DNA of 64,000 bases from Eledone cirrhosa (lineage: Eukaryota): positions 99,076,001 through 99,140,000 of the forward strand of contig OZ024744.1 in the NCBI GenBank assembly GCA_964016885.1, in the 5' to 3' direction. How positions within the stretch are numbered: position 1 is the stretch's first letter; each line of letters opens with the position of its first letter. The notes under the pieces were generated by a model, which was not told the DNA's origin, made no database searches, and saw only the letters and a program-made list of their open reading frames with translations. This document shows positions 25,022-64,000 of this stretch, one piece after another. Both the position numbers and the translations under genes were made by a program.

Positions 25022-25292
25022 TATAAACGTTTGTATTTGTAAAGCCAAAACAATGCAGGTATGGACATAGAATACAAATGCAAATGCAAAATATATTGTT
25101 GACAATTAGTCTTTTACCTTAAATTTATTTAAATAGGACATTTAAATAAATTTAAGGTAAAAGACTAATTGTCAACAATATATTTTGCATTTGCATTTAT
25201 ATTCTATGTCCATACCTGCATTGTTTTGGCTTTACAAATACAAACGTTTATACCTCATTACACAATGCTTCAAGTGAACTATAACTTCCTCC
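25022..25292. mobile_element. Fold-back insert in (TA)n (family A): ~110-bp arms, 40-nt tail on the right
   Basis: Arms meet at TTTAAAT-AGGAC-ATTTAAA (~25135-25139); homologous to 36094-36523. Confidence 0.85.
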
Positions 25293-25840
25293 ATATATAT
25301 ATATATATATAATAGAAAAAAAAACGAGGAAATTTTGTTTACATATAAAAAATATTTATCGCGTATCGACCTATTACGTTCGTTCCACAGAGGATTGGCT
25401 CAAAGTGATCCGTAGGAGTTATGGATCCGACTCCAGTATCGATCTGTACCTCAGACTGATGATGTGACAAAAAATATATTTTTGTTAAGGTATGTGGACT
25501 AAGAATATATATATATAGGCATTTCCCTATTTTTTTGTGAGGGCGTATGTGTATATTTTGGTGTAATTGGTGTGGTGGCAACACCATTATTTCACCATAC
25601 TACCTACACTATATATATATAGAAGATCCCGTTAAGGGGGAAAGCAGGAATTCTTTGCTTAAACTTTAATCTGTTATTTTAATAAATATTTGCTCTAGAG
25701 TTCTTATATATATTTGATATATATTTATCCTTATCGAGCCCTCTTTGGATTTTAGTCTTCAAATTTATTATTACTATTAATATATATATATATATATATA
25801 TATATATATATATATATATATATATATATACATATATATA

Positions 25841-26562
25841 TAAACGGAAAAAATGAAACGAAATTTCATTTCCCACTCTTAGTACGGCTGTTACTTAAAT
25901 ATAAGTATTTATACGTACATACATATATGTATACAGACGTACAGTAGTATGTATATATATATATACATACATGCACACATATATATATGTACGTATGGAT
26001 TCACAGAACATTTATTATAATGCTCGGTGTGTTTGAAAACAAACATCCCCTATTAAGCCGTAGTGTCTAGCAACCATCGTTGCTAGTTTGTTCAACACTT
26101 ACAAAGGAACGCTGTACTAGTTTCAAGCTTATTAGCTATCGTCAGCAACGTATACCTTCCTGCCAGATGATTGAATGTCTGAAAGTATATACTTTCCTTA
26201 TGCATATTAACGGCTGGGCAGCCTAATTTGCATATCGAGTGGGTTAATCGGCCGGGTGCACCGAAAACGATAAACGGAAAAAATGAAACGATTAACCCAC
26301 TCGATATGCAAATTAGGCTGCTCAGCCGTAAATATGCATAAGGAAAGTATATACTTTCAGACGTTCAATCATCTGGCAGGAAGGTATACGTTGCTGACGA
26401 TAGCTAATAAGCTTGAAACTAGTACAGCGTTCCTTTGTCAGTGTTGAACAAACGAGCAACGATGGTTGCTAGACACTACGGCTTAATATAGGATGTTTGT
26501 TTACAAATACACCGAGCATTATAATAAATGTTCTGTGAATCCATACGTACATATATATATGT
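25841..26562. mobile_element. Fold-back PLE-derived insert with ~270-bp arms and a hammerhead in each arm
   Basis: ~25985-26250 is the reverse complement of ~26289-26560; hammerheads at 26109-26151(-) and 26388-26430(+). Confidence 0.88.
26388..26430 (+). ncRNA. Minimal type I hammerhead ribozyme
   Basis: ACGTTG-CTGACGA-TAGCT AATA AGCTT-GAAA-CTAG-TA^CAGCGT; palindromic stem III ACTAGT; GUA triplet. Confidence 0.88.
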
Positions 26563-26567
26563 GTGCA

Positions 26568-60196: not shown

Positions 60197-60540
60197 TGAA
60201 ACAAAATGAAAACGAAATTTCATTTCTCACTCTTAGTATGGCAGATGGGTAAACGGTGCTGATGATAGCTAACAAGCTTGAAACTAGTACATCGTTCCCG
60301 TGTCAGTGTTGAACAAAAAGGTGACGTGGTTGCCTTAACACCGTATGGCATAAATTCAGGCTGTTCAGTTTGTTTACAAACGAACAAAGCGACGTTAGCG
60401 CCGCTAAACTGATACGTGCATATATGTATGTGTACCTGAATGCATATGTATGTATATATGTATATATATATATATATGTGCATGCTACTGTACGTCTGTA
60501 TACATATATGTATGTACGTATACATGCATACTTACATATA
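60197..60540. mobile_element. Inverted (twin-primed) short copy of the 25841-26562 family
   Basis: Antisense tail 60197-60246 matches 25842-25890, followed by a sense arm with a hammerhead at 60252-60296. Confidence 0.8.
60252..60296 (+). ncRNA. Minimal type I hammerhead ribozyme
   Basis: AACGGTG-CTGATGA-TAGCT AACA AGCTT-GAAACTAGTA^CATCGTT. Confidence 0.88.
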
Positions 60541-60829
60541 TATATATATATATATATATATATATATATATACATATAAATATACATATAAATATATATA
60601 TATATATATATAAATATACATGTAAATATATATATATATATATATATATATATATATATATATATATATATATATATATATATATATATATATATATATA
60701 TATATATATATATATATATACATATGTATATAGTTTTGCGAGGTTTTTGATATGAATTATACTTGATATGAATTATACTTGGGGAGGGTCATATTTGTGT
60801 AATATTGCCAGAATTAATAACAGAACACA

Positions 60830-62858
60830 CTCACTGTTTGGTTGGTTTTCGCTTCTGTGTCTTTTATATCGGTTAATTTAATTTATTCCGTCCTCAATGT
60901 TGCCATTGACTGACCAACGGTCAAAAATACAGATACAATATAGACACAAACACATATATATAGTCTATCAAAGTTCTTTCGTTGCACATCTGCAACATCG
61001 TCAGTGGTGCTATTGTTTCCTCCCGTTGCATTGTATTTTCTACGCCATCTTTATTTAGTCTGTTTATATATTTATTTATTTGTTTTGTTTTTTTGTCTTC
61101 TTTGCGCATGCGTTTGCGTGTGTCTATAGGGTTTTGTTTGATGTGTGTTCGTGATTGGGTGACTGTGTATTGGTTAATGTATTCTATCTTTACTAGAGTG
61201 TGTTTATATGTGTTTGTTGTTATTGTGCTTGTGTATGTATTTATTTATCTATTTATTTATTTATTTATTTATACTTCTCTTAGGTCAGTGTTGTTTGTTT
61301 GGGTGTTGTTGTTATTCCATTCATTTTTTCTGTTTAGCATTGGCCTTCTAAGTTCTATTTCACTGGCCTCTCTGATTTGCCTATCTGCTGGGTGATTTCT
61401 ATGTTTAGATATTATTCTAATTTCTATGTTGTCTATGTTACCGTCGTGTTGTTGTCTGGCATGTTTGTATAGTACTGAACCGTTTTTTCGTCCTTTTAGT
61501 TCCCCCCAGTGTTGGTCTATCCTTTCACCTATGCTACGAGTTGTCTCGCCTATGTATGTTGTTGTCGTGTTTCTGCAAGTACCCTCTGTACATCTTATAC
61601 TATAGACTACGTTTCTAGTTTTACAGTTTATCCGGGGTTTACTTTACATATGATACATTTCCTATTAGTACAGTGGGTTTTCTTAAAAGAGTTGGTTTTG
61701 CCGATCAGGGATTTTATGGTGGTTCCTGGATTTTCTACCACCTTAATCTTTAAGTGGGTCTTTCTCAGGTCCTTTCTACACTGGTTAGCTAATTTCCCTC
61801 CAGGAGTAGCGTCCACAAACATGACACTCTGGTATCTCTGGTTGTCGTACCATGAAGTGGCTTTCCCTATCTTATGTCTAGCCCTATCTAAGCTATTCCA
61901 TGATTTGCTCCTGTATAATGGGAAAATTCCTTTCATGTCCAGTTCTATGAGGGTCTTATACTTCTCCGTGGCTCCTTCGTATACTCTGATTCTCACTCTT
62001 TGTTTGTAGCCAGAGAACTGCATGCGGTTGATGAAGTGTTGGATGTGTCTTTCCATTTCTGCTGGGTCGCACATGCGGGACACATTCTTCATCACTCGTA
62101 CCAAGTCTGCGATCTGAATATTAAACTTAGCGCTACTGGACATTGCTGAGTTTTTGAGTATCAGGTATTTGGAGGCCATGGGTTTAGCATAGTGTGAGTG
62201 GAGAATTTGGGCTCTCTCGTCTATAGTGTTAATCCAGAGTTCCGTGTCTAATACAGGTAGTCTATTGTTAGGGTGTTTGGAAGGGTAGTCGATAGTAATA
62301 GTTATACTCTGGTGTATGGAATGATCTATCTGCTGGCTGCTTTCCATTGTGCTACGTTCTAAATCAAACTTGTTAGTGCTCTCTAGTGGGGATGTTCTTA
62401 TTACTATATTGATATCGTCTACGTAACGAGAGTACATGATGAGGTCTATGGAGCTCTCATCAAGGAGATCTTTAAGTCTCTTTTCCCACCATACCATAAA
62501 AAGGTTGGCAACGTCACCAGCTATGCTGACGCCAATGGCTGCTCCCTCATTTTGGGTGTAGATCTTCTCGTTGAACTTGAATATGTGGCCCTTTAGGGTA
62601 GTTTTGATACTAGCCCCTATTGCATGTGCGACAATTTTTCTTACCTGATCATTGTTTTGGGGGGTCCGTATAGCTTTGGTCCACCCAATCCACCTTCCCA
62701 TGGGAGTCTTTTTAGCCATTGAGGTTATGGTGGGGGGTCTACCTCTTATGGGTCTACTGGGGCAGAAACGTCTAAGGTCATGGCTGTCTAGGTAGTCAGT
62801 GTCGTAGGTAAGTCTAAGTAGGAGGCCCAGTTCGTCTGTGTTGACGTCGCAGAACAGG
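60830..62858 (-). mobile_element. 5'-truncated Penelope-like element (Naiad-like): RT + GIY-YIG + 3' hammerhead
   Basis: QNEGAAIG, YSRYVDD, LPVLD, KPMAS; EN frame 61269-61631 NVVYSIRC..C..YIGET..RQIREA..LNRKNEW; hammerhead 60967-61008(-). Confidence 0.85.
61628..62858 (-). pseudogene. PLE reverse transcriptase, 5'-truncated, stop before the endonuclease
   Basis: ORF 61628..62899; its first residues read across the inversion junction. Confidence 0.85.
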
Positions 62859-64000
62859 CGGATTGGGTGGACCAAAGCTATACGGACCCCCCAAAACAAT
62901 GATCAGGTAAGAAAAATTGTCGCACATGCAATAGGGGCTAGTATCAAAACTACCCTAAAGGGCCACATATTCAAGTTCAACGAGAAGATCTACACCCAAA
63001 ATGAGGGAGCAGCTATTGGCGTCAGCATAGCTGGTGACGTTGCCAACCTTTTTATGGTATGGTGGGAAAAGAGACTTAAAGATCTCCTTGATGAGAGCTC
63101 CATAGACCTCATCATGTACTCTCGTTTCGTAGACGATATCAATATAGTAATAAGAACATCCCCACAAGAGAGCACTAACAAGTTTGATTTAGAACGTAGC
63201 ACAATGGAAAGCATCCAGCAGATAGATAATTCCATACACCAGAGTATAACTACTACTATCGACTACCCTTCCAAACACCCTAACAATAGACTACCTGTAT
63301 TAGACACGGAACTCTGGATTAACACTATAGACGAGAGAGCCCAAATTCTCCACTCACACTATGCTAAACCCATGGCCTCCAAATACCTGATACTCAAAAA
63401 CTCAGCAATGTCCAGTAGTGCTAAGTTTAATATTCTAATCGCAGACTTGGTACGAGTGATGAAGAATGTGTCCCGCATGTGCGACTCAACAGAAATGGAT
63501 AGACACATCCAACACTTCATCAACCGCATGCAGTTCTCTGGCTACAAACAAAGAGTGAGAATCAGAGTATACGAAGGAGCCACGGAGAAGTATAAGACCC
63601 TCATAGAACTGGACATGAAAGGAATTTTCCTATTATATAGGAGCAAATCATGGAATAGCTTAGATAGGGCTAGACATAAGATAGGGAAAGCCACTTCATG
63701 GTACGACAACCAGAGATACCAGAGTGTCATGTTTGTGGACGCTACTCCTGGAGGGAAATTAGCTAACCAGTGTAGAAAGGACCTGAGAAAGACCCACTTA
63801 AAGATTAAGGTGGTAGAAAATCCAGGAACCACCATAAAATCCCTGATCAGCAAAACCAACTCTTTTAAGAAAACCCACTGTACTAATAGGAAATGTATCA
63901 TATGTAAAGTAAACCCCGGATAAACTGTAAAACTAGAAACGTAGTCTATAGTATAAGATGTACAGAGGGTACTTGCAGAAACACGACAACAACATACATA
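62859..64000 (+). pseudogene. Inverted second arm of the same PLE (RT and start of EN), running off the window
   Basis: Reverse complement of ~61550-62690 with few substitutions (e.g. YVDD vs FVDD). Confidence 0.88.

Follow-up and report, generated by a model that had tools for sequence, protein, structure and literature searches.

In a 64,000-nucleotide stretch of the Eledone cirrhosa genome (NCBI GenBank assembly GCA_964016885.1, contig OZ024744.1, positions 99,076,001 to 99,140,000 of the forward strand; hereafter the window), short fold-back inserts made of two inverted arms, with a tail on one arm only, accumulate at (TA)n microsatellites. These inserts are very probably integration products of endonuclease-bearing Penelope-like elements (PLEs), mostly truncated in the hammerhead-carrying pseudo-long terminal repeat (pLTR) or non-autonomous. 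To explain them, we lean toward a model in which both target strands prime reverse transcription on one RNA, at two fixed sites. The fold-back architecture itself is a known PLE signature and is no surprise to a PLE specialist. What is new is a family-fixed, TA-overlapping end of the tail-less (short) arm, the coupling of the 5' ends of the two arms, and one copy, at 60197, that has the geometry of twin priming. A literature search, with most subscription papers outside its reach, brought up neither the TA-overlap rule nor a case of twin priming in PLEs. Loci are named below by their approximate start coordinates within the window (Table 1).

Anatomy of the Fold-Back Inserts

Inverted repeats were recovered by comparing the window with itself and then aligning the arms. 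All ten short inserts that a first-pass annotation had named as fold-backs are inverted repeats located where it had placed them, arm length being 33-335 nt and spacer length 1-261 nt. Arm and spacer measure, respectively, 113 and 5 nt in 25022, 279 and 38 nt in 25841, about 103 and 3 nt in 32545, 176 and 38 nt in 36094, about 172 and 51 nt in 36603, 33 and 6 nt in 37098, about 335 and 261 nt in 58590, 118 and 8 nt in 59630, and 59 and 1 nt in 59957; with 191 and 2 nt, 57712 is effectively a perfect palindrome. An unpaired one-sided tail, expected at about 30-140 nt, is present in all ten inserts (34-129 nt). The same range holds for the 12 fold-backs measured in total, all with a tail on one arm (34-40 nt in four of them).

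The inserts had been described as unrelated in sequence. In fact they fall into eight families, A and B being found twice each, and the pLTR region of the large PLE, at the end of the window, resembles family C at about 74%. As had been noticed, the two family A copies, 25022 and 36094, are mirror images with a common short-arm end and different fold-back points. More generally, fold-back points of same-family copies lie more than 100 nt apart: the position and the length of the centre vary among copies, the ends do not. Arm-versus-arm differences over 11 structures amount to 52 substitutions, 37 of which are transitions, as expected of aged genomic copies and not of chimeric reads.

Fold-backs missing from the earlier list are found at 56666-57044 (family J), 34660-34806 (family N) and 24844-24904, to which the inverted copy 60197-60532 (family E) is added. 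By our own tally, about 11 related copies stand alone in the window, without an inverted partner, and fold-backs make up roughly 16 of 27 copies. The fold-back form is thus common, not universal, and near-universal use, as first claimed, is contradicted by these single-arm copies and by several non-TA ends. Among the larger structures put forward as PLEs, 32840 and 60830-64000 are indeed PLE-derived inverted structures. The pairing of the outer arms of 47885 is doubtful: they are 91.7% alike, yet a separate copy, 57033, is 97.9% like the left arm. The tail end of 47885 is not at (TA)n.

The spacer of 25841 contains a 22-nt exact copy (26270-26291) of the outer end of the same insert (25840-25861), found nowhere else in the window, which shows a template jump or a tandem/circular template, as in pLTR formation. 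At 23525, a tail-less family D end is followed, after 1.3 kb, by the 60-nt palindrome at 24844; the whole (23525-24904) may be a single insert whose inverted arm is very short.

Polarity and Hammerhead Motifs

The orientation of the arms was read from open reading frames (ORFs) and from hammerhead motifs. A scan of region 19000-64000 that required the core and stems I-III found 21 hammerhead cores, whereas every one of 20 Markov-resampled controls gave 0-1. As a match to the minimal type I hammerhead of PLE pLTRs, the motif with its three stems occurs in families A, B, C, E, I, J, and N; D, F, G, and H lack it. Of the 16 inverted structures, 11, belonging to seven families, have a readable polarity, which is outward every time, as had been claimed for readable cases. 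Six of the ten named inserts are among the readable ones; families D, F, G, and H and the palindrome at 24844 are unreadable, and these four families are filed as PLE-type on architecture alone. Inward-facing inverted arrangements do occur outside fold-backs, namely the pair 30690/32507 (1 kb apart) and 19969 with its antisense tail piece at 20184. The two members of the pair (30690-31128 and 32121-32507) are hammerhead copies 93.6% alike with the same 5' end, and they enclose a third hammerhead element (core 31309, - strand).

In the cited section of PMC4209133, metazoan PLE ribozymes have a short, mostly palindromic helix III, a feature shared by the hammerhead cores of the window. Cores 34692 and 20027, of a Hydra-like family, show CAGAAGA instead of CUGANGA, and their helix III is long; family A carries CCGAAGA. 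An Rfam search of the window returned no hammerhead, only sub-threshold matches to miRNA hairpins arising from palindromes and TA runs. RNA folding of 5 of the 21 candidates gave non-significant z values (-0.1 to -1.4), a measure that is uninformative for minimal motifs.

The fold-back point coincides exactly with the predicted ribozyme cut in 25022 (25135; compare 36401) and lies 6 nt from it in the short arm of 56660. As a rule, folding back at the cut fails in about seven others, and one exact case of about nine is suggestive only. Both family C copies start at most about 4 nt from a AAGATGGCG motif (32646-32652 and 58199-58210), which is also seen in the large PLE near 61045 and possibly marks transcription start. 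The motif may be YY1-like.

Relationship to Penelope-Like Elements

The large element encodes a reverse transcriptase (RT) followed by a GIY-YIG endonuclease (EN) in one ORF with one frame break, common to both arms (RVT_1 E=7e-4 and GIY-YIG E=2e-4, both scores just under the Pfam cut-offs). Its best named homologue is an RT-domain protein of Octopus vulgaris, 64% identical over RT and into EN. With its CX4CxxC linker, CCHH-type residues, and C-terminal EN, the element appears to be of the Neptune type by match to the published description, which gives a CX2-5CxxC linker and a CCHH motif for this clade. The EN of 32840 has a CxCX5C linker, no CCHH, and CxxC and CxH around E and N, as judged by eye. 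From these motifs the remnant, whose RT is truncated away, probably belongs to the Hydra clade. Its Atlas neighbours are cnidarian and mollusc clusters, one of them with GIY-YIG in 12% of members. Nearly all Hydra-clade families insert in (TA)n according to the passages cited from PMC8557442. A tblastn search with 33 homologues found PLE coding sequence only at 61335-64000, and none in the spacers of 47885 or 58590.

Direct or inverted pLTRs with variable 5' truncation, by which EN-bearing (EN+) PLEs are recognized, are found in the window. Judged by the motif match and by the likeness of family C to the pLTR region of the large PLE, the hammerhead-bearing short inserts are PLE pLTR-type sequences. 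Four short segments at (TA)n edges (57420-57452, 58407-58439, 58529-58577, and 60735-60815) look like the 3' end of the large PLE and are possibly another tail family; read depth is high over 58366-58432.

The Short-Arm End and (TA)n

The short arm had been said to stop at an internal TATA and to merge into (TA)n. An in-phase passage into (TA)n is indeed seen in 8 of the ten named inserts and in 6 of the 10 families measured, with an overlap of 3-7 nt that is not always a full TATA (59957 has TAT). The short arm of 59630 reaches (TA)n only past a short duplication, and that of 25841 ends in TGTGTGCA against a CACTA-type satellite. The ten inserts have 20 ends, of which 18 lie within 8 nt of a run of (TA)≥4; so do 24 of the 33 ends examined, against 2.1% of window positions. 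This enrichment is inflated by the fact that ends were partly chosen by their TA flanks. (TA)n is also the commonest microsatellite, with 65 runs of at least 6 units in 19000-64000. Compared with random break points in the same elements, the TA overlap gives single P values of 0.02-0.08. Fisher combination yields P=1.8e-4 for the six families joining (TA)n and 0.010 when the four exception families enter at P=1; a simulation of the summed overlap, with one copy per family, gives P=0.0088.

The tail-less ends of three family A copies coincide, as do those of three family B copies, and both families have equal or longer TA runs upstream of the short-arm site that are unused. In family J, the short-arm site also ends the first tandem unit, at a junction without (TA)n. 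Since it is fixed per family and reused at this tandem junction, the short-arm end site appears to be set by the element; pairing with (TA)n accompanies the site and is not a shown requirement.

Independent Reads

The region 57872-58432 was compared with reads of 4 of the 22 listed runs, X7-X19 accounting for small shares; the loose ends considered are the 24 listed of 1159 rows. Two of the runs are raw RAD-seq (restriction-site-associated DNA sequencing) data from other samples under the same species label. At the family B internal site, 58084, 5934 and 7021 of their reads leave the reference into (AT)n, with agreement of 0.77 and 0.78; reads start mostly at 57991-57994, at a GCATGC site, so that these are not counts of distinct loci. 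Depth is about 18,500 and 19,400 at 58078, and 13,000 and 12,700 at 58085. In both samples, about a third of family B reads therefore exit at this site. Being found in reads of two other samples, the exit into (AT)n is genome-wide and no artefact.

Nine of the 15 listed joints connect opposite strands (41 further joints are outside the list), and 7 of these 9 recur in both samples. The joints from 57927 to 57927, 57947, and 57972, whose reads run mainly toward the 5' end of the element (60/67 and 61/70), are read as head-to-head, the joint type being our own reading. Joints 58039/58050 and 58055/58058 have one start each, lie inside an internal quasi-palindrome, and may be of the inward kind. 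The centre of 57712 (57872-57890) is covered only by contigs of run X1 (depth 23), depth being 0 in X5, X20, and X21. X1 is possibly the source sample, so that this centre is not independently confirmed. We made no use of the drop in depth at the family C internal site (from about 90,000 to 39,000 over 58301-58308), which has no listed loose-end row and could be caused by read ends. A 24-nt family C motif had no match in metagenome contigs.

Proposed Double Priming on One RNA and Its Alternatives

In the model toward which we lean, the GIY-YIG endonuclease would cut both strands of an AT-rich or (TA)n target, and the two target 3' ends would start reverse transcription of a single RNA, each from its own family-fixed site. 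Priming at the distal site would give the tailed arm, and priming at a proximal, UA-rich site, 34-129 nt upstream, the tail-less arm; pairing of 3-7 nt with (TA)n would help at the proximal site. Both cDNAs would stop at or near the same point, which would differ between events (RNA 5' end, ribozyme cut, or stall). Their ends would then be linked through 0-6 nt of microhomology, or one cDNA would fold back and its extension would pair with the other. If the distal cDNA stalled at the second primer, an inversion without duplication would result, as in 60197. A hybrid in which two primers act and one of the cDNAs folds back accommodates all observations, and we include it in this model. The anatomy, polarity, fixed short-arm site, and 5'-end coupling are seen directly; we infer the order of events, the use of one RNA, and the role of base pairing.

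Two observations carry the model. First, the 5' ends of the arms are coupled: the spacer is at most 8 nt in 6 of the 10 inserts, against 2.8-5.3% under independent truncation (P≤4e-6, with rough nulls), which excludes two independently truncated cDNAs. Second, in 60197 the right arm corresponds to reference positions of about 125-392 and the left arm to about 400-448: the arms abut without overlap, with a gap of about 8 nt, and the right arm ends at an internal TA run. This copy is an inversion without duplication, with twin-priming geometry, and is the best single clue to the mechanism. In addition, the tail-less arm is the longer one at its 5' side in 32545 and 32840. Not all inserts, therefore, derive from one tail-primed cDNA. 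Double priming on one RNA explains the coupling and the 60197-type geometry together. The uniformly outward polarity, the TA overlap at the fixed short-arm site, and the frame break common to both arms of the large PLE also speak for it. Priming by both cut strands, as first proposed, thus gains from 60197, from the arms of 32545 and 32840, and from in vitro data, while the independence of the two cDNAs has to be given up.

Other parts of that proposal fare less well. It placed one start at the RNA 3' end, whereas in the one reconstituted PLE described in the cited part of PMC11167929 both start sites are internal. It also gave the self-complementarity of (TA)n as the general reason for priming, which does not agree with family C tails joining non-alternating flanks or with use of the family J site without (TA)n. 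Finally, the architecture is less unusual than stated, head-to-head polarity, one-sided tails, and (TA)n targeting being already in print and many copies single-armed.

The main rival, a serious one even if we think it unlikely, is snap-back: a single tail-primed cDNA stops, folds back, and extends as a hairpin, its new 3' end being captured at TA microhomology. Such junctions are documented for R2 in the cited section of PMC11204384. Snap-back accounts for the coupled 5' ends and for shared lesions; it predicts that the spacer belongs to the tailed arm, which holds for 5 of the 7 cases that can be assigned, and 25841 shows a CGA microhomology of 3 nt. It cannot make 60197, whose tail-less arm contains sequence that the tailed arm lacks, nor 32545 and 32840, in which the tail-less arm reaches further 5', and it leaves the family-fixed end site and its reuse at the family J tandem junction unexplained. 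Centres of 0-1 nt, reported for 57712 (aligned as 191+2), 59957, and 24844, would also be too tight for a priming hairpin. Three countable signatures carried by the inserts, the owner of the spacer, 5'-end coupling, and non-overlapping inversions, separate double priming from snap-back.

Several points weigh against double priming as set out here. The spacer lies on the tailed arm in 25022, 59957, 25841, 56660, and probably 58590, and the contrary cases are weak: 3-4 nt in 32545, and arms only 90% alike in 32840. The copy at 60197 is a single one, of a diverged subfamily (70-80% to the reference), with an approximate gap, and could reflect two events. In inserts 25841, 34660, 56660, and 59630 there is no in-phase junction with (TA)n. 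Family C tail ends at 58350-58352 (13,172 and 10,694 loose reads) join heterogeneous, AT-rich but non-alternating flanks, with agreement of 0.34-0.44. The polarity of families D, F, G, and H is unread, and the priming sites of an anole PLE in vitro are not homologous to the target (PMC11167929, part cited). The evidence as a whole consists of the window and reads. It is as a tentative extension that we propose double target priming on a single RNA as the routine origin of the inverted-repeat-plus-tail signature, the proximal site being picked where an internal UA run pairs with (TA)n.

For rotifer Penelope elements, head-to-head repeats with palindromic junctions have been put down to an antisense transcript that primes itself (PMC3846280, section cited). 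We consider such self-priming improbable here, since fold-back points vary freely within a family, unlike a fixed self-priming palindrome, and the later in vitro work shows target-primed synthesis on sense RNA (PMC11167929, part cited).

Equally improbable in our view is an origin in rearrangement of single insertions after integration, by template switching or break repair in fragile (TA)n, or in DNA transposons of the miniature inverted-repeat transposable element (MITE) type. The abundance of (TA)n and of nested and broken copies speaks for such an origin, but readable polarity is always outward and the short-arm end looks element-defined. MITEs are units of fixed length whose two ends carry conserved terminal inverted repeats. 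Here the centre varies between copies and the ends do not, the reverse of a MITE; with a tail outside the repeat at one end and centre and length varying within families, we rejected this class.

A sequencing or assembly artefact from chimeric fold-back reads is barely credible: the exact 57712 centre is unseen in the two raw-read samples and in the other species compared (depth 0, 57872-57890), but the arm substitutions, the family-specific ends, and the joints recurring in both independent samples all argue against it.

Other Features of the Window

Positions 1-19005 form a long satellite of related units, of 46 bp and then 27 bp, with a higher-order block of about 1445 bp present three times and holding an 85-bp array. 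Two copies of a long interspersed nuclear element (LINE), at 37968-40872 and 45116-47890, are 96% alike and adjoin (TAT)n/(ATT)n, not (TA)n; by eye, we take them to be L1/Tx1-like. An apparently intact open frame of 1213 aa (52260-55901) has endonuclease, RT, and C-terminal zinc-finger-like motifs and is presumably RTE-like, again by eye.

Table 1. Coordinates of fold-back inserts and related elements in the window.
Feature	Coordinates	Strand or arrangement	Remarks
Small palindrome 24844	24844..24904	arms 30 nt, centre 1 nt	(TA)n at right
Family A fold-back 25022	25022..25292	short arm left, tailed arm right, tail 40 nt	tailed-arm start is the base equivalent to the predicted hammerhead cut
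Family E fold-back 25841	25843..26567	tail 129 nt left	hammerhead cores 26145(-), 26394(+); short arm ends at satellite, not (TA)n
Family C fold-back 32545	32540..32802	left short arm exceeds tailed arm by 3-4 nt at its 5' side	hammerhead core 32706(+)
Decayed 5'-truncated Hydra-clade-like PLE 32840	32836..34659	+	inverted tailed pLTR piece 32836-33018(-); endonuclease remnant ~33030-33500(+); tail-less pLTR 34534-34659(+)
Family N small fold-back 34660	34660..34806	short arm ~25 nt	same pLTR family as PLE 32840; host site is AT-rich pLTR; hammerhead-like core 34692(+); no TA overlap (exception)
Family A fold-back 36094	36096..36524	tail 39 nt left	hammerhead cores 36287(-), 36372(+)
Family F fold-back 36603	36599..37028	tail 34 nt right	polarity unreadable
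Family G fold-back 37098	37096..37241	tail 74 nt right	polarity unreadable
Nested family I and J pieces (47885)	47886..50043	hammerheads outward	outer-arm pairing doubtful
Family J fold-back 56660	56666..57044	tailed arm left, 44-nt short arm right	new in this analysis; 123-bp tandem unit in tailed arm, hammerheads 56849, 56972 (- strand)
Family B fold-back 57712	57704..58169	tail 85 nt right	perfect palindromic centre; internal short-arm end site 58084
Family C single-armed tailed copy	58199..58352	+	without inverted partner
Family B fold-back 58590	58586..59606	spacer 261 nt, tail 86 nt right	hammerhead cores 58693(-), 59416(+)
Family H fold-back 59630	59632..59915	tail ~35 nt left	polarity unreadable
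Family D fold-back 59957	59958..60152	tail 76 nt left, centre 1 nt	polarity unreadable
Family E copy 60197, twin-priming geometry	60197..60532	left arm (-), right arm (+)	left arm is last ~48 nt of tail; hammerhead 60259 in right arm
5'-truncated PLE, apparently Neptune-type	60735..64000	-	RT 61634-62854; GIY-YIG 61272-61637; hammerhead-like core 61004
Inverted copy of the same PLE	from 62856, off window end		frame break common to both arms

Significance for Repeat Annotation

These results bear on the annotation of cephalopod repeats and on assembly. If the tentative extension to a routine origin is true, octopus genomes would hold a large unrecognised class of miniature hairpin retroelements, derived from many PLE clades, which annotation pipelines file as short interspersed nuclear elements (SINEs), MITEs, or unknown. 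In an octopus annotation, 893 of 900 recently active SINE families are unclassified and 31 PLE families are recently active; the cited part of that text does not describe fold-back palindromes (PMC13282606). The formation of PLE inverted repeats and tails, and the microsatellite bias, are named as an open problem in the cited section of PMC8557442, and an in vitro system has since become available (PMC11167929).

Comparison With Known Systems

The closest counterparts of the inserts are the EN+ PLEs described by Arkhipova et al. (2013) and Craig et al. (2021), which have the same structure of inverted pLTRs and tail. In the passages compared, PLEs carry an inverted 5'-truncated copy, most frequently head-to-head, with a palindrome at the junction (PMC3846280); the tail is often at one end only, a hammerhead lies in the pLTR, and microsatellites are targeted (PMC8557442; PMC3846280). 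The differences are in size and in the ends. Most inserts here are 150-1000 nt long and without ORF, and their tails reach 129 nt, against 30-40 nt in print for the optional 3' tail; a tail-less end overlapping (TA)n by 3-7 nt is absent from the passages compared.

The Poseidon element of Anolis offers a biochemical parallel. In vitro, its protein acts on both strands, cutting and extending each, and the tail is bounded by two sites of RT start (Frangieh et al., 2024, PMC11167929, sections cited). Poseidon thus shares with the proposed model AT-rich targets, two-strand cutting and extension, and two start sites. Its start sites, by contrast, lie in an AC-rich stem-loop without homology to the target, and the main text, in the sections compared, derives no inverted arms from the two sites.

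L1 inversions are known as non-duplicating. The copy at 60197 has the same geometry as L1 twin priming, whereas most inserts here duplicate the same segment in both arms. In twin priming, each of the two 3' ends at the break starts copying a single RNA (Ostertag and Kazazian, 2001, as cited in PMC2246262, in the passage seen here).

Finally, non-LTR retrozymes, as described in the cited parts of PMC7229834 and bioRxiv 10.64898/2026.07.22.740005, are short, non-coding, PLE-derived elements with a type I hammerhead, arranged in head-to-tail tandems. At 56745-56993, two 123-bp tandem units with a hammerhead each form a retrozyme-like array within the family J fold-back, itself nested in a family I TA run. 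As a class defined by at least two head-to-tail hammerhead units, retrozymes were rejected for the other inserts, which are inverted, and only this array belongs there. Short, non-coding, and hammerhead-bearing like retrozymes, the inserts differ from them in being head-to-head palindromes, not tandems.

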